Shown here one piece after another: positions 1 through 54,903 of a stretch of DNA of 64,000 nucleotides. The DNA is taken from the NCBI GenBank assembly GCA_963797555.1, contig CAWCPV010000016.1, positions 32,001-96,000 of the forward strand, written 5' to 3'. The notes below the pieces were generated by a model, which ran no database searches, had not been told where the DNA came from, and worked only from the letters and a program-made list of their open reading frames with translations. Positions within the stretch are counted from its first letter, which is position 1; each line of letters starts with the position of its first letter. Made by a program: the position numbers and the translations under genes. Source of the stretch: an uncultured Gammaproteobacteria bacterium (GTDB taxonomy: Bacteria > Pseudomonadota > Gammaproteobacteria > CAWCPV01).

Positions 1-372
1 TCTATCCCGGTGTTTGGCGGATTCATCTATTTCAACGATCATCTTCATCGGCTACTTCGCAAGCTAAAGATTACAACGAAAACCTCACGCTCAAATACTT
101 GGAACGACGCTTTCGTTACGCAAGACCGATACGTCATAGTAACGCTGAAAGACGGGCGTAGAATACGGGGATATCCGACAATGTTTTCAAACGACCCAGA
201 GGAAGGGTTCGTATATCTTTATAACCCCGCTTGGGTTAATGACGATAAATCTCATGATGAGGAGCCAGATTATTTTGAATCGATTTGTCATGGCTTCCTT
301 TTGAACAGAGATAACATTGACTTGATCGAGTTTACATTGGATCCTGGAGAAACACTAACTGCCACACAATAG
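1..372 (+). CDS. DUF6338-family-like protein, C-terminal part (open at the window edge); integron cassette gene
   Basis: Frame is open from base 1. W..F...V.V.LKDG..I.G....S.DP....YL pattern recalls DUF6338; AT-richer than the rest of the window; lies upstream of an attC. Confidence 0.65.
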   Translation, partial: SIPVFGGFIYFNDHLHRLLRKLKITTKTSRSNTWNDAFVTQDRYVIVTLKDGRRIRGYPTMFSNDPEEGFVYLYNPAWVNDDKSHDEEPDYFESICHGFLLNRDNIDLIEFTLDPGETLTATQ

Positions 373-1197: not shown

Positions 1198-1254
1198 CCC
1201 TACGCTCAAGCGGGACTGCGCAAAAGCGCGCGGCCCCTTAGCTTCACGTTAGGT
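1192..1254 (+). mobile_element. Integron attC site 2
   Basis: GTCTAAC-cctac-GCTCAAGC...cttagc-ttcac-GTTAGGT, a 63-bp palindromic attC. GTCTAAC is the exact reverse complement of the cassette's 5' GTTAGAC (593-599). Confidence 0.9.
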
Positions 1255-2113
1255 GTCTGGAGAACGCGTGACGAAAACCAAACTTCTCTTCGTAGACGAC
1301 GAAGCGTATCAATCACGGCTCTACAGCGATGCGCTGCTGGACGGTGGTTTCGACGTGCAGATTGCGGAGTCGGTCGATGAGGCACTCGAACTTGCCCGGT
1401 CCGATTCGTTCGACCTCATCCTGCTTGACGTTATGATGCCTTCTGGGTCGTTCTTCGAGGAGACGGAAACCGCGGGTGGGTTCACGACAGGGAAAGCTCT
1501 GGCACGGGAACTCGCCGAGATTCAGCCAGAGGCGAAGATCGTGGCCTTCACCAATTCGCGTGATCCCGAGATTGATGCGTGGTTCACGAAGGATGACACC
1601 GTTGCGTATATCCAGAAGCAAAACGTCTTGTACGATGAGCTGCCTCGAACTCTTCGCAAGGTCTTGCACCAAGGCGCTGAACCGCCGCAGGTCTTCATCG
1701 TTCATGGTCACGACCGGACAACCTTGCTGGAGTTCAAGAACTTCTTGCAGAACCGGCTAGGCCTGCCTGAGCCGTATATCTTCTCAGAGCAACCGAGTCG
1801 TGGGCTGACATTGATCGAGAAGTTCGAGAAGTACGCCGCAGAAGCGGATCTTGTCTTTGTCCTCCTCACTCCAGACGACCTCGGAGGCCCAGTGGATTCC
1901 GGTACTTCCAGCGCGCGGCCACGCCCAAACGTCGTCTTCGAGTACGGGTACTTCCTTGGGTCTCTTCAACGTCACAGTGGCCGCGTCTTCCTGCTCAAGA
2001 AGGGCGAGCCTGAGGTTCCGTCTGACATCACCGGGATCGTCTACGTGGATATCACGGACGGAATCGAAGCAGCCGCGGAAAGCCTGCGAAGGGAGCTGGA
2101 AGAGTGGCTGTAG
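1253..2113 (+). CDS. Response-regulator receiver domain fused to a TIR-like nucleotide-binding domain (Cap12/PycTIR-type, PF10137-like); start may be GTG 1268
   Basis: N-terminal LLFVDDE, LILLDVMMP, AFT, IQK receiver motifs; C-terminal VFIVHGHD, TLIEKFE, LLTPDD, RPNVVFEYGYF, PSDITGIVY. Confidence 0.85.
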   Translation: MSGERVTKTKLLFVDDEAYQSRLYSDALLDGGFDVQIAESVDEALELARSDSFDLILLDVMMPSGSFFEETETAGGFTTGKALARELAEIQPEAKIVAFTNSRDPEIDAWFTKDDTVAYIQKQNVLYDELPRTLRKVLHQGAEPPQVFIVHGHDRTTLLEFKNFLQNRLGLPEPYIFSEQPSRGLTLIEKFEKYAAEADLVFVLLTPDDLGGPVDSGTSSARPRPNVVFEYGYFLGSLQRHSGRVFLLKKGEPEVPSDITGIVYVDITDGIEAAAESLRRELEEWL

Positions 2114-2714: not shown

Positions 2715-3070
2715 GAAAAGGATCGCCTCGGCCAGCGTGGGTGCGCCGATGGGCACCACCATGAACTCCTGGATGTCGACGTTGTTCGCCGCGTGCAGCC
2801 CGCCGTTCAGGATGTTCATCATCGGCACCGGCATTTGGAACGGACCCTTCCCGCCCAAATAGGCATACAGCGGCACCCCGGTCTGCAGCGCGGCTGCCCG
2901 GGCGCAGGCCATGGACGCTCCCAGGATCGCGTCGCGCCGAGGCGCTCCTGGTGCTCCGGCGTCCAGCTCCAGCAGCCTACGGTCGATGGATCCTGGTCAG
3001 CCACCTCCGTGCCGACGAGCGCACGCCGTATCTCGCCGCGAATGTGGCCGACCGCCGTCAGCACCCCCCT
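2715..3070 (-). pseudogene. eno: Enolase internal fragment, frameshifted
   Basis: ARAAA...PLY.YLGG...[30 protein letters not shown] is the enolase signature; truncated at both ends. Confidence 0.85.
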
Positions 3071-9490: not shown

Positions 9491-10127
9491 TAACTCGCCC
9501 GCTTACAGGCGTAATGGGCAAAAAGTCCTGGGCGCGATGTCCGTCTTCCGGCGTTGGCGATTGCAGCAATCGGGATGCAGATGACCATCCAGAGACCGAC
9601 TCTGGCACCTCGGATCGCGGCAGGGTCGGGCCAGGGGACCATTATGTCCTCCTCGCTCGATCTTGGCGCCGCGCTGCTTCACGGGACGCTTGACGCCCCG
9701 CTCCGAGGCCGTGTCTTGGTCGGCAACGAGGCCGGACATTTCGGCCGACCGGTCATCCAGCAGGCACTTATGAGAGGGATGCCCTGCCCCAATTTTGGGG
9801 TTCACTAATCAAGTGCGCCTTTGCCCACCTGCACCAGGCCTCCCGAAACTGGCCGGGATTGACCGGTTTGTTCCCCAGAGCTACGCTGCAAGTATATCCG
9901 AGGCGGTCAGAGTTTCGATTTTTGGGCGGCTTCATGGGGGGGCGGGCGCTCGTGTCCAAGGCCGAAGCAGGGGATTTCCGCCATACCGCCCGAGACGGAG
10001 ACTACCCGAGAATAGTGCTCTCCATCCCAAACAATCTGCTCAACACGCTGATCCAGGCAATCTCGCCGAAGGGCATATCTGAGGTGGTCCGACCCCCATG
10101 TGAGGGCTGAGACCGGGAGGCCGTGTG

Positions 10128-11208
10128 ATGATCAGCTTGAAGAAGGCAGCACTGCTCGCCGGCACTTTTCTAGTGAGTGCAAGCTCCTTGGCGCAGCAGC
10201 CTTCCGCGGTCCCGCCCCCAACGCCTGGCCCGACGGAGCAGGTCGAGGCGACTCCTCCTCAGCCAAAGCCGGAGATGGAGCGGCCGACGGTCTGGGGCGA
10301 GCCGACGGAAGTGCACATCGTGATGTACGTCATCGACGTGGACGAAGTGGATTCTGCCAGTCAGAGGTTTTCCGCGAGCGTATACTACCAGGCGACGTGG
10401 AGCATCCCGTCCCTGGTTCACCAGGGTCCGGGACCGGTGGTGCGCGGTCTGACCGAAGTCTGGAATCCGCGGCTCGCTATCGTCAATCAGCAACAGGGAT
10501 GGAACGCCTACCCGGGCTTTGTCGAGATCTCCCCCAACGGCCACGTCGTGTATCGCCAGAAGGTCTGGGGTTGGTTCTCTCAGCCGCTGGACCTGCGTGA
10601 TTTTCCCATGGACCGCCAGACCCTGACAGTGCACCTCGCAGCAGCCGGCATGCTCGAGAAAGATGTCAAGATGATTTCCTTCGAAGGTGCGTATGGCAGG
10701 AAATCCGGCATCGCCAAACAATTCTCCATTCCCGACTTCGACGTTCCTGTCCTGGCGGGCGGGACCGATGCCCTACGTTGCCTACGAGGGAGCGCCGGGT
10801 ACGGCGGGGTACCAGCTTCAGATCGAGGTCCGGCGGAAGGTAGCCTACTATGTGATGAAGATCATCCTTCCGCTCTGCCTCATCGTCCTCATGTCTTGTG
10901 CGCCGCGCTGGATCGACCCGAAGCAGATCGGCACCAATGTCGGCATCTCGACCACGGCGTTCCTGACGCTCGTGGCCTATCTGTTCGCGATCAACGTTCT
11001 GCTGCCGCGGGTGTCGTACGTGACGCGCATGGACCGGTTCATCCTGCTTTCCATGTGCATGGTGTTCGCCGGCTTGCTGCAGACGGTCGCGAACACGGCA
11101 CTGGTCAGGAACGGGAAAACGGCAAAGGCTGTACGCATGGACTGGTGGTCCCGGGGCCTCTATCCGGCAGCGCTCGTCGGTATCCTGGCGGTGTCATTTT
11201 GGTTGTAG
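10128..11208 (+). CDS. Pentameric ligand-gated ion channel (GLIC/ELIC-like), frameshift near 10744
   Basis: Signal peptide; [15 protein letters not shown] loop; R...YY.MKIILP M1, M2, LPRVSY.T.MD, M4. Spread over ORFs 10125-11228 and 10687-11208. Confidence 0.85.
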
Positions 11209-11217
11209 CGCGGCGGA

Positions 11218-13170
11218 CCCGACTTTGACAGGAGCTACGCACATGGGTGCTGCAACACGAGGCGCGACAAGGGTTTGCCGCATTGCAGCAAAAGAGGCGT
11301 GTATCTAGGTCCTCAGCGCAGATCGAGGACCGGTGGGGGATTCTTGATTCCGAGTGCTTTCAGGCGCTTAGCGGCTGCCGGAGTCGGTTCGGTGACCTGC
11401 CAGACGGTGCCATTGGGGCTCAACAATTGTGCGAGCTTGATGTGCTTGAGGTCATCGCGGAGGTTGCGCCAGGTGTCGGCGCAGGCGTGCTCGGCCACCC
11501 GCTCGAGCAGCAGGGCCAAGACGCTCAGGGCCACGTGGGCATGGATGCGGTGCACCGCCCAGTGGTAGACGGGCCGAAGCTTCAGCCCGCTCTTCAAGGT
11601 GCGCCACGCCTCCTCCACCCGCGCGAGCTGCTTGTAGCCGAGCGCCAGGTCTTCGGGGGAGAGCGTGTCGTCGTTGCTGGTGACCACGAACTTGCCATCC
11701 AAGCGCGCCTCGGCCTTGATCTTGGCGGGGTCGAGCAGGGGATGGCCGGTGGCGCTACGCTTCAAGTAGCGACCGAAGCGCCCACTGTTGAGCAACGCAC
11801 AGGCCCGCTTGCTCTGGCCCTCGCCTGGACTCTCGCGCAGGCTCGCGAGCTCTGCCTCCAGTTCCGTCAAGAGCTCGGCGCGGTGCGCTCGGCTGCGCTC
11901 GGCCTCCTGCGGGTTGTGGCAGACGATGTAGCGTCGGCGCTGCTCGCCGACCACGACCTCCTTCACCCGCAGGTTCTGCGCGACCGGATGGTAGCGCCCG
12001 GGACGGGCGAGCACCTCGCGGGTGACCTCATCGCCGCGGCGCATGGGCACGCACACGATGTACTTGCCCCCACCGCGGGCGAGCGCTTGGAGGTTGGCCT
12101 GCGAGACCATCCCGGCATCGCCCACGAACAGACAGCGCGAGAGCTGCCAGCCCTTGAGATCGCGCTTCACCTGCTCGACGGTGCGGACATCCACCGTGTT
12201 GCCGGGGAACACCCAGTGGCGCACCGGGAAGCCGTCGCGGGTGACCGCGAGCCCGACCACGATTCTCGCGCGCATCGCCGCGCCCGTTCTTGCTGTTGCC
12301 GCGCTTCCTCGGCGCCGCGTACGGCTTGGCCCCTCTGCCGCCGCGGATCCTCGCACAACATCGTCCGGCCCCACCCCTCGGTCCTCCTCATCGACCTCGA
12401 AGTGCAGGCTGGTCGTGTCGTAGAAGACGAGATCGACATCGAGGTTCAAGAGGTCCGCCAAGCGGAAGTAGATGGCCCGCTCGATGGTCGCCTTCTCGGC
12501 TTCCAGGAAGTCCATCGCCCGGTACAGATGCTGCAACTCCAGTCGCTCGGTCTGTCCGATGCGCACCTCCTCGGCTAGCCACTGGCTGAAGCAGTAGAGC
12601 TTGGAGGCCGGAGCACAGGCGCGGTTCGCCACCATCGCGAACAGCGCCCGCTCCACCGAGAAGTCGAAACGGCGTCCTCCGACGACCTCCTCGATCACTT
12701 CGGCGATCCCAAGGCGTGCCCACAGCGCCTCCAGCACGTAGACCTCCCCGTAAGGCCAGGCGTTGACCACCTGCCAGCCCGGGTGCTCGGCCACGATGTC
12801 CTCGGGCGCGGCACGGCGCAGGATGCTCCGAGCGAGCCGGCGCAGCCGCTCGGTGACCTCGGGGGCTTCGGCACGCCCACAGTTATAGACGATGCGCGTC
12901 TCGGAGCGGCCCTTGTCCGGGTTCCAGACGCTCTCGGCGAGCTGCAGGTGGGTGATCACCGAGCCGTCGGCGCGCTTCTGGTGGGTCTCGCGCAAGTACA
13001 TGTGCGCAACTATACATGCATCACTAAGTACACATCAATGACAAGCTAACATTCCATGTATCTATGCATTTGGCGGCATGCGAGCGCCCGCTCACCGCTA
13101 ACCCGTTGATCCGCGGAACCCCGAACTCAACGTCCACCCCATCGATGTATTGGTAACTGTCAAAGTCGGG
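11218..13170 (-). mobile_element. Complete IS1634-family element
   Basis: Perfect 14-bp terminal inverted repeats CCCGACTTTGACAG (11218-11231) and CTGTCAAAGTCGGG (13157-13170); GCGGA direct repeat at 11213-11217 and 13171-13175. Confidence 0.92.
11313..13001 (-). CDS. IS1634-family DDE transposase (short compensated frameshift at about 12260-12330)
   Basis: VFYDTTSL.FE, FPGNT.D, VGDAGM, YK.L..VE.AWR.LKS.L.LRPVYH motifs. Confidence 0.9.
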   Translation of the reverse strand: MYLRETHQKRADGSVITHLQLAESVWNPDKGRSETRIVYNCGRAEAPEVTERLRRLARSILRRAAPEDIVAEHPGWQVVNAWPYGEVYVLEALWARLGIAEVIEEVVGGRRFDFSVERALFAMVANRACAPASKLYCFSQWLAEEVRIGQTERLELQHLYRAMDFLEAEKATIERAIYFRLADLLNLDVDLVFYDTTSLHFEVDEEDRGVGPDDVVRGSAAAEGPSRTRRRGSAATARTGAAMRARIVVGLAVTRDGFPVRHWVFPGNTVDVRTVEQVKRDLKGWQLSRCLFVGDAGMVSQANLQALARGGGKYIVCVPMRRGDEVTREVLARPGRYHPVAQNLRVKEVVVGEQRRRYIVCHNPQEAERSRAHRAELLTELEAELASLRESPGEGQSKRACALLNSGRFGRYLKRSATGHPLLDPAKIKAEARLDGKFVVTSNDDTLSPEDLALGYKQLARVEEAWRTLKSGLKLRPVYHWAVHRIHAHVALSVLALLLERVAEHACADTWRNLRDDLKHIKLAQLLSPNGTVWQVTEPTPAAAKRLKALGIKNPPPVLDLR

Positions 13171-35005: not shown

Positions 35006-37402
35006 ATGTCCGTAACCGCAAGAAGACTGGAGACTCGGCAGGGTCCGCTGACGGAGGAGGAGCTGAAAAGGATCGACGCCTGGTGGAGGGCCTGCAACTA
35101 CCTGAGCATCGGCATGATCTACCTCAAGGACAACCCGCTGCTGAAGGAGCCCTTGAAACCCGAGCATATCAAGCACCGCTTGCTGGGGCACTGGGGTGCC
35201 AGCCCGGCGCTGTCCTTCGTCTGGGCCCACCTGAACCGGGTGATCAAGGCGCATGATCTCGACATGATCTTCGTCGCCGGTCCGGGGCACGGTGCGCCGG
35301 GCGTCCTGGGGCCGGCCTATCTGGAAGGTACCTACTCGGAGGTTTATCCCGACAAAAGCGAGGACGAGGAGGGGCTGGGCAAGTTCTTCAAGCAGTTCTC
35401 CTTCCCGGGTCATATCGGCAGCCACGTCACCCCGGAGACGCCGGGCTCCATCCACGAGGGCGGCGAGCTCGGCTACAGCCTCTCCCACGCTTACGGCGCG
35501 GCGCTGGACAACCCCGACCTCATCGTCGCCTGCGTGGTGGGAGACGGCGAGGCGGAGACCGGACCGCTCGCGACCGCCTGGCACTCGAACAAGTTCTTGA
35601 ACCCCGTCCGCGACGGAGCCGTGCTGCCAATCCTGAACCTCAACGGCTACAAGATCGCCAACCCCACCCTCCTGGCCCGCATCAGCCACCAAGAGCTGGA
35701 GGCGCTGTTCGTCGGCTACGGCTACCGGCCCTACTTCGTCGAGGGCTCGGACCCGGCCGAGATGCACCAGAAGATGGCGGCCACGCTGGATGCAGTGGTC
35801 GAGGAGATCCGCGCCATTCAGGGCAAGGCGCGCGAATCAGGGACGGCCGAGCGCCCGCGCTGGCCGATGATCGTGCTGCGCACCCCGAAGGGCTGGACCG
35901 GGCCGAAGGATGTCGACGGTCACAAGGTAGAGGGCTTCTGGCGCTCCCACCAGGTGCCCATGGGGGCGGTGCGCGAGAATCCGGCGCATCTCAAGCTGCT
36001 GGAGGAATGGATGCGGAGCTACCGGCATGAGGAGCTGTTCGATGCCGACGGTCGGCTCGTCCCCGAGCTGAAGACGCTCGCCCCGAGCGGCGGGCGGCGC
36101 ATGAGTGCCAACCTGCATGCCAACGGGGGTTTGCTGCGCAAGGAGCTGAGGCTGCCCGACTTCCGCGCCTACGCCGTGAACCTCCCCGAGCGCGGCACCC
36201 TGCGCCACGAGAACACCCGGCCCCTGGGCGAGTTCTTGCGGGACGTAATGAGGAACAACCCGGCGCGCTTCCGGGTGTTCGGCCCCGACGAGACCGCCTC
36301 CAACCGGCTGCAGGCCCTCTACGAGGTCTCCAAGAAGACCTGGATGGCGGACATGCTGCCGGAGGACGCCGACGGCGGCGAGCTCGCGCGCGACGGTCGG
36401 GTGATGGAGATGCTGTCCGAGCACACCTTGATCGGCTGGCTGGAGGGCTACCTGCTCACCGGGCGGCACGGCCTCTTCCATACGTACGAGGCCTTCGCCC
36501 ACGTGGTCGATTCCATGTTCAACCAGCATGCCAAGTGGCTGGACATCTCCAAGAACCACGTCCCGTGGAGAGCGTCGGTCGCCTCCGAAAACATCCTGCT
36601 CTCCTCCACGGTGTGGCGGCAGGATCACAACGGCTTCTCTCATCAGGACCCAGGCTACGTCGATCTCGTCACCAACAAGAGCCCGTCGGTGACGCGCGTA
36701 TACTTCCCGCCGGATGCCAACACTCTGCTGGTGGTGGCGGATCAGTGCCTGCGCTCGACCGACTGCATCAACGTCATCGTCGCCGACAAGCAGAAGCACC
36801 TGCAGTTCACCACCATCGACGACGCCATCATCCACTGCGCCAAGGGCATCGGCATCTGGGCGCGGGCCAGCACCGACCAGGGCGAGGAGCCCGACGTGGT
36901 GCTCGCCTGCTGTGGCGACGTGGTCACCATGGAGGCGCTCGCGGCCGCGGCCATTCTGCGCGAGCGCGTGCCGGATCTAAAGCTGCGCTTCGTCAACGTG
37001 GTGGATCTGTTCAAGCTGCAACCGGCCTCGGAGCACCCGCATGGCTCGACCGAACGCGAGTTCGACAGCCTGTTCACCACGGACAAGCCGATCATCTTCA
37101 ACTTCCACGGCTATCCCTGGCTCATCCACAAGCTCGCCTACCGCTTCACCAACCACGGCAATTTGCACGTGCGCGGCTACAAGGAGAAGGGCAACATCAA
37201 CACGCCCTTGGAGCTTGCGATGCTGAACGAGACCTCGCGCTTCCACCTGGTGATCGACGTCATCGACCGCGTGCCCAGGCTGCGGACGAAGGCGGCCCAC
37301 CTCAAGGAGGAGATGAAGAACGACATCATCGACAACCTGCGCTATGCGCGCGAGGAAGGCACCGACCGGGAGGAACTCACCGGCTGGACCTGGCCTTATT
37401 GA
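35006..37402 (+). CDS. xfp: Phosphoketolase (XFP/XPK)
   Basis: [39 protein letters not shown]. Confidence 0.97.
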
Positions 37403-52741: not shown

Positions 52742-53711
52742 ATGACGACATCGACGACTGAAGGCGGCCGGGCGACGGGCAGCGGTAAATACGAGCAGCT
52801 CATCGAGCGCACCAAGGCGATCCCCGCGATCCCGACGGCGGTGGCCCATCCCTGCGACGAGGTGTCGCTCGGGGCCGCCGTCGAGGGGGGGCGGATGGGG
52901 ATCATCACGCCCTTGCTGGTCGGACCCGAGCAAAAGATCCGAACGGTGGCGGAGAAATTCGGCCTCGATATCTCGCCCTACGAGCTCATCGACGCTCCGC
53001 ACAGCCACGGAGCCGCCGCCAAAGCGGTGGAGCTGGTGCGCCTCGGAGCGGGCCGAGCTGCTGATGAAGGGGAGCCTCCACACCGACGAGCTGCTGGGCG
53101 AGGTGGTGAAGCGCGATACGGGGCTCAGGACGGCTCGGCGCATCAGCCACGTCTTCATCATGGACGTGCCCACCTATCACAAGCCCCTCATGATCACGGA
53201 CGCGGCGGTCAACATCGCCCCCACCCTGGAGGAGAAGCGCGACATCCTGCAGAACGCCATCGACCTGGCCCACGCCCTGGGGCTCGCGCGGCCCAAGGTG
53301 GCGATCCTCTCCGCCGTCGAGACCGTGAATCCGAAGATTCCGACCACTGTCGAGGCGGCCGCCCTGTGCAAGATGGCGGAGCGCGGACAGATTACCGGCG
53401 CCATCCTGGACGGCCCGCTCGCCTTCGACAACGCCATCAGCGCCGAGGCCGCCCGCATCAAAGGGATCGAGTCGCCGGTGGCGGGCGATGCCGACATCCT
53501 GCTGGTGCCGGATCTCGAAGCGGGGAACATGCTGGCGAAGAACCTGATCTTCCTGTCGCGGGCGGATGCGGCAGGGATCGTGATGGGGGCTCGGGTGCCG
53601 ATCATCCTGACCAGCCGCGCGGACAACGAGCGCACGCGCCTCGCCTCGTGCGCCGTGGCTGCGCTCTATGCCATGGCGCGGCGCGCCCGCACCGACATGG
53701 AGGCGAGCTAG
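52742..53711 (+). CDS. pta: Phosphate acetyl/butyryltransferase, frameshift near 53048
   Basis: AVAHPCD, LMKGSLHTDEL, TDAAVNIAP, DGPLAFDNAI, PIILTSRAD. Confidence 0.9.
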
Positions 53712-53715
53712 GGCC

Positions 53716-54903
53716 ATGGCCGACACCCTGCTCGTCATCAACGCCGGCTCTTCCAGCATCAAGTTCTCGGTCTACGAGACAGCGGACGGGGGTGGCCTCA
53801 CGGCTGCCTACAAGGGACAGATCGAGGGCATCGGAACGCGGCCGCGCCTGCGCGTGCGCGACCACAGCGGCGTCTCCCTCGTGGACGCCCAGTTCGAGGC
53901 GGCCGAGGTCGCTGATGTGCCGAGCGCCATCGGGCGGGTCGGCGCCTGGCTGCGCGAGCAGTTGGGCGGCAAGCTGCCGGTTGCCGTCGGCCACCGGGTG
54001 GCGCATGGGGGCCCCATTCATGCGGCCCCCGTGGCGGTGGACGAGGAGGTGTTGGCAGTCCTGGAGCGCTTCGTGCCCCTCGCCCCGCTGCACCAACCGA
54101 ACAACCTCCAGCCCATACGGGCGATCCAGCAGGCGTTCCCCGGGCTGCCGCAGGTGGCATGCTTCGATACCGCCTTCCACCGCGGACACCCCGAGGTCGC
54201 GGACCGCTTTGCGATCCCCGACTCGCTTTATCGGGAGGGGGTACGCCGCTACGGTTTCCACGGGCTTTCCTATGAGTACATCGCGCACACGCTGCCGTCC
54301 GTGGCACCGCAGATCGCCGACGGCAAGGTGGTGATCGCGCACCTCGGAAGCGGGGCCAGCATGTGCGCGATCCAGGGGCGGCGCAGCGTCGATACCACGA
54401 TGGGCTTCAGCGCCCTGGACGGGCTGCCGATGGGCACGCGCTGCGGTCAGATCGACCCCGGGGTGCTGCTCTACCTGATGAACGAGAAGGGATACGATGG
54501 CAAGGAGATCGAGCGCCTGCTCTACCACGACTGCGGCTTGAAAGGGCTCTCCGGCATCAGCAACGACGTGCGTGACCTTCTCGCCAGCGCCGACCCGCGG
54601 GCGCGGCTCGCGCTGGACTATTTCGTCTACCGCATCGCTCGCGAGCTGGGCGCCCTCGCGGCCGCCATGAGCGGCATCGACGCTCTGGTGTTGACGGCCG
54701 GCATCAGCGAAAACTCGCCCGAGATGCGGGCCCGCATCTGCGAGGGCGCCGCCTGGCTGGGAGTCCGCCTGGACGAGGCGGCCAACCGGGCCGCAGGCCC
54801 GCGCATCTCCACCGCCGGCTCGCGCGTGTCGGCCTGGGTGATTCCCACCAACGAGGAGCGGATCATCGCCGAGCACACGCTTCGGGTCTGGCGCGGACAG
54901 TAG
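53716..54903 (+). CDS. ackA: Acetate/propionate kinase
   Basis: NAGSSSIK, GHRV.HGG, APLHQP, FDTAFH, RYGFHGLSY, HLGSGAS, IPTNEE. Confidence 0.95.
   Translation: MADTLLVINAGSSSIKFSVYETADGGGLTAAYKGQIEGIGTRPRLRVRDHSGVSLVDAQFEAAEVADVPSAIGRVGAWLREQLGGKLPVAVGHRVAHGGPIHAAPVAVDEEVLAVLERFVPLAPLHQPNNLQPIRAIQQAFPGLPQVACFDTAFHRGHPEVADRFAIPDSLYREGVRRYGFHGLSYEYIAHTLPSVAPQIADGKVVIAHLGSGASMCAIQGRRSVDTTMGFSALDGLPMGTRCGQIDPGVLLYLMNEKGYDGKEIERLLYHDCGLKGLSGISNDVRDLLASADPRARLALDYFVYRIARELGALAAAMSGIDALVLTAGISENSPEMRARICEGAAWLGVRLDEAANRAAGPRISTAGSRVSAWVIPTNEERIIAEHTLRVWRGQ

Follow-up and report, generated by a model that had tools for sequence, protein, structure and literature searches.

A receiver-TIR fusion protein in an integron-like cassette array, a candidate phosphorylation-gated immune effector with kinase-linked relatives

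Near the left end of a 64,000-nt stretch of an uncultured gammaproteobacterial genome (the window: contig CAWCPV010000016.1 of assembly GCA_963797555.1, here called C16, positions 32001-96000, forward strand) we found a gene whose product joins a response-regulator receiver domain (REC) to a TIR domain. With moderate confidence we regard this REC-TIR protein as a phosphorylation-gated TIR NADase with an immune function, which in most of its relatives would form the output of a relay resembling the Detocs defence system and which has been orphaned in this genome. We infer that the protein has NADase activity, that phosphorylation activates rather than inhibits it and that it serves in defence; any activity in the present host is an inference too.

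Domains, conserved residues and predicted pairing

The coding sequence occupies positions 1268-2113 on the forward strand and specifies 281 aa, as judged from the open reading frame (ORF), Pfam and AlphaFold2. A GTG at 1253 opens a slightly longer frame (1253-2113, +, 286 aa), which is intact. We consider GTG 1268 the likelier start, because the ribosome-binding motif GGAG, read directly from the sequence at 1259-1262 (+), lies 5 nt ahead of it and because the corresponding entry of the protein collection (P0001) is the 281-aa form begun at this codon. Residue numbers are nonetheless counted from GTG 1253; those of the 281-aa form are lower by 5.

The receiver domain (PF00072, 42.2 bits at a cut-off of 30.2) covers residues 12-123 (1286-1621, +) and displays the residues of receiver phospho-chemistry, namely D15 and D16 in VDDE, D59 in LLDVMMP, T100 in AFT and K122 in IQK. 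The TIR domain (PF10137, 103.4 bits at a cut-off of 24.7) is of the CAP12/Pycsar type; it covers residues 146-267 (1688-2053, +) and matches profile positions 1-117 of 119. The preliminary description of this locus, made from the letters alone, had proposed exactly such a fusion with all of these motifs, and the translation and both Pfam matches bear it out. It was also right about the type of TIR domain, since the only solved structures that the TIR half matches by sequence are three Cap12 chains (7un8, 9lmq and 7un9; best 7un8, 2.8e-6). A stretch of the form RxNVVFExGxFLG can be aligned between our protein and the Cap12 chains, and in a profile alignment E230, which sits in the NVVFEYG of the TIR domain, falls on the Glu of 'nvvfefg' in 7un8 and 9lmq. 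In TIR-STING proteins this Glu is the catalytic one, and E230 would be its counterpart. An NCBIfam scan of the protein gave no model above its cut-off. The receiver profile matches 272 solved chains, and the 60 that were listed are receivers of response regulators and kinases together with one de novo protein. Compared with solved response regulators, the receiver carries a 13-residue insert after MMP/beta-3 (profile alignment), whose Gly-rich motif is common to most homologs.

An exhaustive search against cluster representatives at 50% identity yielded 272 proteins at E<=1e-30, and PF00072 and PF10137 occur together in 106 of the 120 best homologs. In the ESM Atlas, three clusters with 56, 133 and 61 members combine REC with PF10137, mostly from Acidobacteriota, and separate clusters contain REC fused to other TIR-like families. 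We aligned 221 homologs of 255-320 aa, in 218 of which both domains are covered. The phosphorylatable D59 is kept in 217 of these 218 sequences and so is E230; S or T at position 100 is found in 214, D or E at position 15 in 211, D16 in 198 and K122 in 197 (with R in 13 more). With residues conserved to this extent, the REC and the TIR half are both under selection for their chemistry.

The family also has longer variants, with REC-REC-TIR, NB-ARC-REC-TIR and HPr-REC-TIR arrangements. One protein of the cluster-representative library (P0134, 719 aa) consists of an NB-ARC NTPase, a winged helix, REC and TIR, so that a STAND-type sensor is joined straight to a receiver-TIR unit. In a quick tree, which has SH-aLRT support only and for which long rows were cut to their last 300 aa, our protein was placed in a clade of 24 rows with 99% support. 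The NB-ARC and REC-REC fusions fall in this clade, and the operons with small kinases described below make up two other clades.

Sampled relatives come mostly from Acidobacteriota and Planctomycetota. A protein from another sample (P0002) is 89% identical to ours, and the ten nearest homologs (P0002-P0011) range from 53 to 89% identity. A metagenome scan for close relatives returned three loci, none of them close, with partial matches of 29-48% identity. Sixty other genomes of the same class contained no full-length match and a single match to the TIR half alone. Among 79 loci on viral contigs, only L107 matches both domains, which argues that REC-TIR is not typically phage-borne. In the literature we searched, we found no description of a receiver-TIR protein, and a preprint on TIR signalling (10.64898/2025.12.03.692087) contains no occurrence of 'receiver', 'response regulator' or 'phosphoryl'.

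An AlphaFold2 monomer model built on 31 homologs had a mean pLDDT of 85.6. Strands and helices alternate over residues 10-139 (block pLDDT 84-98), as in a CheY-like fold. Foldseek matched receiver structures with TMt values of up to 0.87, the top ones being PleD, NtrX and PorX, and also the TIR-STING chain 9lmq_B. The homodimer was predicted with an ipSAE of 0.72, against 0.00 for the best control. Of 30 proteins whose structures were solved as pairs, 20 attain that mark, as does 1 of 23 solved as single chains. Contact agreement between runs was at least 98% and partner pLDDT at least 79. The predicted interface is a symmetric TIR-TIR contact formed by residues 186-192, 207-214, 219-240 and 254-262, which are the most conserved positions of the TIR domain and include the stretch around E230 (228-237). 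The receiver takes no part in it. This pairing is a prediction, and its good score may stem from a resemblance to Cap12 assemblies of known structure.

TIR NADases need self-association, and phosphorylation of a receiver commonly drives oligomerisation. Given this behaviour and the TIR-TIR dimer model, the likeliest mechanism would start with phosphorylation of D59 (D54 in the 281-aa form) of the N-terminal receiver. The phosphorylated receiver would release or promote the pairing or stacking of TIR domains, if the control is indeed a positive one, and the paired TIRs would then cleave NAD+, their presumed substrate, so that growth stops, presumably to the benefit of defence. In most relatives, REC-TIR would be the output of a relay of its own, comprising a small sensor-less kinase or a PAS/GAF kinase and usually a stand-alone receiver. 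Here, only the output gene would have been captured, as a single-gene cassette in an array without integrase.

Partner genes of the relatives

A scan of one genome per species gave 80 loci, of which we examined the 27 whose match starts no later than query residue 50. Loci L051, truncated by the end of its contig, and L041, with a match starting only at residue 96, were excluded. Neighbouring ORFs were picked by a longest-ORF rule and scanned with Pfam. REC-TIR genes do not usually stand alone: 18 of the 27 have an adjoining gene whose product contains a histidine kinase ATPase domain. Twelve of these 18 kinases are members of a single family of small proteins (258-310 aa), in which a coiled coil is followed by HisKA and HATPase_c only. 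Ten of them, from several phyla, could be aligned with a mean column identity of 53%. The kinase gene may lie upstream (L026, L030, L032, L034, L036, L037) or downstream of REC-TIR (L029, where it is truncated, L031, L035, L038, L039, L040). The other six kinases have PAS domains (L020, L021), a hybrid CHASE3-PAS architecture (L024) or a GAF domain (L042), or follow a methyltransferase gene (L022, L033). Together with the conservation of D59, these kinases lend indirect support to the phosphorylation control that the preliminary description had suggested. The same description had named ordinary kinase operons with a degenerate catalytic Glu as a sign against its reading; the homologs do sit in kinase operons, but their Glu is not degenerate.

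Beside the kinase, 10 of the 18 kinase loci contain a gene for a stand-alone receiver of 128-159 aa. These three-gene sets of kinase, stand-alone receiver and receiver-effector, present in 10 of the 27 loci, are the same in layout as Detocs, to judge from gene order and from the available sections of the Detocs preprint (Rousset et al., bioRxiv 10.1101/2023.01.24.525353). There, DtcA is a kinase, DtcB a stand-alone receiver and DtcC a receiver-effector. Defence depends on the His of the kinase and on the Asp of the DtcC receiver, and mutation of DtcB turns the system toxic, for which reason DtcB was proposed to act as a buffer. The Detocs effectors are exchangeable: 80% are PNP ATP nucleosidases, the others endonucleases (REase), TOPRIM or transmembrane effectors. 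In the three-gene sets of the REC-TIR family, TIR stands where most Detocs systems have the ATP nucleosidase.

In two of the 27 loci (L028, L046) an HPr gene takes the place of the kinase gene, as it does on the viral contig L107, where it likewise adjoins REC-TIR. The active-site His is kept in all three of these HPr proteins (L028:6880-7260, L046:5548-5964, L107:5858-6265) and in the HPr domain fused to REC-TIR in P0251 (residues 12-90). HPr is not known to feed receiver domains. The small sensor-less kinase and the recurrent HPr partners (two loci, one viral contig and one fusion) raise the question of what signal is sensed. In the remaining 7 of the 27 loci there is neither a kinase nor an HPr partner.

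We made some further observations on these neighbourhoods. In L022 (6782-8348) and L033 (6861-8577), which come from distant phyla, REC-TIR is followed by a small methyltransferase of the Methyltransf_4 type and then by a HATPase_c protein of 345-372 aa in which no HisKA is detectable; this pair may represent a third type of partner module. In L055, a phosphoenolpyruvate (PEP)-utilising enzyme (PPDK_N plus mobile domain) lies about 1.3 kb from REC-TIR. The operon of L032 lies between the genes for enolase and iPGM, and that of L046 after those for pyruvate kinase and HPr, which may be a coincidence or a link to PEP metabolism.

The surroundings of these loci bear on whether the family acts in defence at all. 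REC-TIR could instead be an ordinary physiological two-component output, with a kinase that senses the environment or the metabolism and a TIR domain that tunes NAD+ or produces a signal derived from ADP-ribose to bring on dormancy or a stress response. The PAS, GAF and CHASE3 kinases of L020, L021, L024 and L042 are typical of environmental sensing, and three acidobacterial loci (L020, L021, L025) share the same neighbours, TPR and uvrC. An HPr that adjoins REC-TIR (L028, L046, L107) or is fused to it (P0251), with its active-site His kept, points to metabolic input. We scanned 143 of the 165 non-core ORFs of at least 130 aa within 4 kb with PADLOC, leaving out 22 with plainly housekeeping Pfam matches, and 18 of the 27 loci gave no match at E<=1e-8. 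On the other hand, clear defence genes were found within this distance in 5 of the 27 loci (NsnA twice, BrxA/B, HEC-01, and mad8 with PDC-M48B and a ThsB-like TIR) and ambiguous matches in 4 more (methylase, kinase domain, reverse transcriptase); no multi-gene PADLOC model fits, and the linked kinases match only PDC-M43B, weakly.

Overall, we regard a purely physiological role as unlikely. Cap12 and PycTIR, the characterised PF10137 members known to us, are defence effectors, as the Pfam name indicates, and fusions to NB-ARC exist. Defence genes or mobile elements adjoin 9 of the 27 loci, and the distribution is patchy, with a full-length match in none of the 60 other genomes of the class. Moreover, our copy was caught in an integron cassette, a setting reported for phage defence genes in the available sections of bioRxiv 10.64898/2026.03.17.712381. 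If the family were physiological after all, it would be unusual among two-component systems in acting directly on NAD+.

The loci without partners allow another explanation, namely that the receiver has no need of phosphorylation and serves as a ligand or protein switch or as a handle for oligomerisation, and that the orphan protein senses infection by itself. Besides the 7 loci and the window, in which no kinase or HPr gene lies nearby, this explanation is favoured by the NB-ARC-REC-TIR fusion P0134, by the conservation of the 13-residue insert next to the phosphorylation site in all subfamilies and by an earlier proposal of kinase-independent receivers in conflict systems, which is cited in the available sections of Kaur et al. 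2021 (PMC8195603). It seems quite improbable to us. The phospho-chemistry residues are each retained in 197-217 of the 218 homologs, members of the orphan clade included, a kinase is present in 18 of the 27 loci, and the receiver lies outside the predicted dimer interface.

A bolder version of the phosphorylation reading would make REC-TIR an undescribed branch of defensive phosphorelays in three forms: a Detocs-like form with a sensor-less kinase of 260-310 aa; an HPr-coupled form in which a phosphoryl group derived from PEP gates an NADase; and a stand-alone form fired by phosphodonors of the host (HPr~P, acetyl-phosphate or stray kinases). We consider this highly doubtful. If the stand-alone form were true, the trigger would be the metabolic state of the cell during infection.

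The cassette array and the status of the copy

The assembly comprises 5.35 Mb in 20 contigs and is 84.6% complete. The REC-TIR gene is the last of four co-oriented small genes with attC-like sites between them, which form an island with a G+C content of 48-56% (approximately C16:31001-34000) in a genome of about 65%. In order, the array consists of a gene for a 201-aa unknown protein, a DUF6338 gene with a 45-aa ORF, a gene for a 193-aa unknown protein and REC-TIR. The DUF6338 gene (214 aa; PF19865, 73.2 bits on the full ORF) starts at C16:31728, outside the window, and its 3' part takes up positions 1-372 (+). Between this second cassette and the third lies an attC site of 88 nt (512-599, +) with GCATAAC...GTTAGAC ends and a CAGCCG/CGGCTG inner stem, which resembles the attC sites beside intI on contigs C7 and C3. 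The third gene (616-1197, +, 193 aa) has a sub-threshold CapR match only (18.1 bits, cut-off 24.2) and no PADLOC or NCBIfam match.

The 5' boundary of the REC-TIR cassette is an attC site of 63 nt (1192-1254, +; GTCTAAC...GTTAGGT). In the bottom strand, an R-box stem, a spacer and a bulged L-box stem make up a fold of -28.4 kcal/mol. The site shares 40 of 63 bases, mostly in the four R''/L''/L'/R' boxes, with the attC site C7:44461-44523, which belongs to an array next to a true integron integrase. Between this boundary and the retroelement fragment that begins at about position 2188, nothing is coded besides REC-TIR, in line with the preliminary description, which had noted that the cassette lacks a kinase, a CD-NTase and a cyclase. 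The 74 nt after the stop codon (2114-2187) form a bottom-strand fold of -6.6 kcal/mol (z = 0.53). We thus have a genuine cassette on the 5' side that has been truncated on the 3' side.

An integron integrase (TIGR02249, 502.5 bits, cut-off 265) is encoded at C7:47556-48500, the only location above the cut-off. None of the 31 integrase-like matches in the genome falls on C16, and we therefore regard the REC-TIR array as an attC cluster without integrase. The stand-alone integron cassette of the preliminary description accordingly holds for its canonical 5' attC, but a 3' attC and an integrase on C16 are missing. The region C7:43755-48500 is a complete integron, in which at least five attC sites lie upstream of this intI, and a second array lies beside a truncated intI (185.7 bits) at C3:989422-993500; the attC C7:45179-45271 is repeated exactly at C3:993408-993500. 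To the left of the first cassette (C16:30780-30990, corresponding to L010:14780-14990), a GC-rich and ORF-poor 1 kb contains three copies of a GGACAATGTCC-like palindrome. The first GTTAGGG boundary of the array comes after these GGACAATGTCC-like palindromes, and no integrase remnant was detected around them. We found no tRNA or tmRNA beside the island.

Downstream of the gene lies the 3' fragment of a multi-copy reverse-transcriptase/maturase retroelement (2188-2690, -; GIIM domain in ORF 2301-2660), a fuller copy of which encodes RVT_1 (108 bits). Seven other copies, partial or full, were seen in the genome (C4:300986-301486, C5:223143-223362, C7:294761-294862, C3:686122-686221, C4:743875-743972, C14:392959-393055 and C9:192816-192909), and all copies stop a few bases past a GC-rich hairpin with a GNRA-like loop. 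We dropped the idea that 2188-2690 is a group II intron inserted in the attC of the cassette: there is a single terminal hairpin, no domain VI and no Rfam match. No Rfam model, group II intron domains included, matched C16:28001-36000 at E<=0.1. The array ends with a gene fragment (2697-2912, -) whose translation appears to be enolase; window positions 2724-3000 are 93% identical to C4:459499-459779.

We also scanned the surroundings of 28 homolog loci with strict attC criteria. No attC-like site directly flanks any homolog gene, and L031, L046 and L056 have one site each at a distance of 1-2 kb. The scan finds only one of three sites in the window's own array, which indicates that it misses many.

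The partner kinase family is lacking in the assembly, and REC-TIR is therefore an orphan here. It would either be silent until a phosphodonor of the host cross-feeds it or be a stored spare part. The preliminary description had pointed to acetyl-phosphate as such a donor, and the genes in question are indeed present in the window, 33-52 kb from REC-TIR: xfp at 35006-37402, a PTA_PTB match at 53046-53663 and ackA at 53728-54873. Their presence shows only that the host has the capacity to make acetyl-phosphate. As triggers, acetyl-phosphate and the phage protein that the preliminary description had named as an alternative are both guesses. Among the sequencing runs, no RNA run is listed, and in the DNA runs the shared fraction of sampled words does not exceed 0.15. 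In the same window, a 367-aa ORF (10125-11228, +) scores 45.6 bits against PF02931, the ligand-binding domain of neurotransmitter-gated ion channels, and looks, from its sequence, like a bacterial homolog of pentameric ligand-gated channels.

Several findings weigh against a phosphorylation-gated immune effector that forms part of a Detocs-like relay in its relatives. A profile of the small kinase family reaches at best 79.9 bits in this genome, the level of generic kinases, in an assembly that is 84.6% complete. In the clade of our protein, 3 of the 6 loci with context have a kinase (PAS or hybrid) and 3 have none. Around many loci of the relatives there are uvrC, enolase/iPGM, pyruvate kinase or other housekeeping genes, and 18 of the 27 loci gave no PADLOC match nearby. 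The kinases of the relatives, with HisKA/HATPase_c only or with PAS, GAF or CHASE3, lack the TPR sensor drawn for DtcA, and a TIR domain is not named among the alternative effectors in the available sections of the Detocs preprint. The literature we searched has no report of activity, phosphorylation or a phage phenotype for any REC-TIR member. As to the copy itself, there is no attC-like fold in the 74 nt past the stop, so that the cassette has lost its own 3' attC, and no sigma-70-like promoter was seen ahead of the gene, the single match lying inside the ORF (shuffle mean 0.9).

Integron cassettes are normally promoterless and transcribed from upstream. For this reason, and because the frame is intact with every conserved residue present, a good GGAG precedes GTG 1268 and an 89% identical protein (P0002) exists in another sample, we find it very unlikely that the copy is a dead passenger, an unexpressed cassette remnant without current function, as the contig without integrase, the absent 3' attC, the retroelement and enolase fragments directly after the gene, the missing promoter-like site and the absence of the partner kinase from the assembly might suggest. 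The orphan cassette is a natural test of whether a receiver-effector functions without its kinase, and of whether integrons store, besides complete defence systems, also parts of multi-gene ones.

Comparison with known systems

In response regulators such as PleD, PorX and CheB, a receiver also gates an enzyme domain. REC-TIR differs from them in having TIR as its output and in the 13-residue insert after beta-3 of its receiver.

Integron cassettes have been reported to store phage defence genes (Kieffer 2025, Darracq 2025 and Getz 2025, as cited in bioRxiv 10.64898/2026.03.17.712381). Like them, the REC-TIR cassette carries one compact gene without a promoter, has an attC as its boundary and lies in a low-GC array of a genome with a true integron. 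It differs in that its array has no integrase and the cassette no 3' attC. The available sections of that preprint mention no receiver or TIR cassette, and 'receiver' and 'response regulator' do not occur in the paper; the one word in it that starts with 'TIR' is an author name, Tirumalai, in the reference list.

By PADLOC, the best matches of our protein are five models of PDC-S35, a candidate single-gene system (E 1.7e-41 to 1.5e-32), which cover the TIR half and the linker. The first 73-114 model positions are not aligned to the receiver, so the N-terminal part is a different one. The literature we searched has no text on PDC-S35, which is itself only a candidate system.

PycTIR of Pycsar belongs to the same PF10137 family, and residues 186-276 give a weak match to the PADLOC PycTIR model (1.5e-6). 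In contrast to Pycsar, the locus has no cyclase gene and we found no cyclic-nucleotide-binding part; the neighbours of REC-TIR are the DUF6338 gene and two unknowns. Cap12 of CBASS is likewise a PF10137 TIR protein and the only solved relative by sequence, with the RxNVVFExGxFLG stretch and its Glu in common. However, neither a STING domain nor a CD-NTase gene accompanies REC-TIR (Pfam, ORFs), and the NCBIfam model of Cap12 gives 35 bits at a cut-off of 450. The sensor of Cap12 is a binder of cyclic dinucleotides, whereas that of REC-TIR is a receiver. The locus is thus neither a Pycsar nor a CBASS system.

Detocs also fuses a receiver to an effector that arrests the cell. Our receiver weakly matches the PADLOC models PDC-M60B (1.6e-6) and PDC-M60C (0.0017), which have the sizes of a lone receiver and of a receiver-effector. 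That PDC-M60 stands for Detocs is a guess of ours. The window differs from Detocs in having neither the kinase nor the buffer receiver, and hence does not hold the three-gene operon.

The preliminary description had offered REC-TIR as a candidate for an undescribed system. This we do not uphold, since the operons of the relatives have the three-gene layout of Detocs, as given in the available sections of its preprint. Its interpretation stands in part: phosphorylation gating has gained support, but the kind of system was already known. The REC-TIR system is a TIR-bearing form of a known defensive two-component layout and not a new kind. If our reading is true, the phosphorelay-gated immunity of Detocs extends to TIR NADase effectors, and it reaches phyla with little-studied defence, in our samples mostly Acidobacteriota and Planctomycetota.

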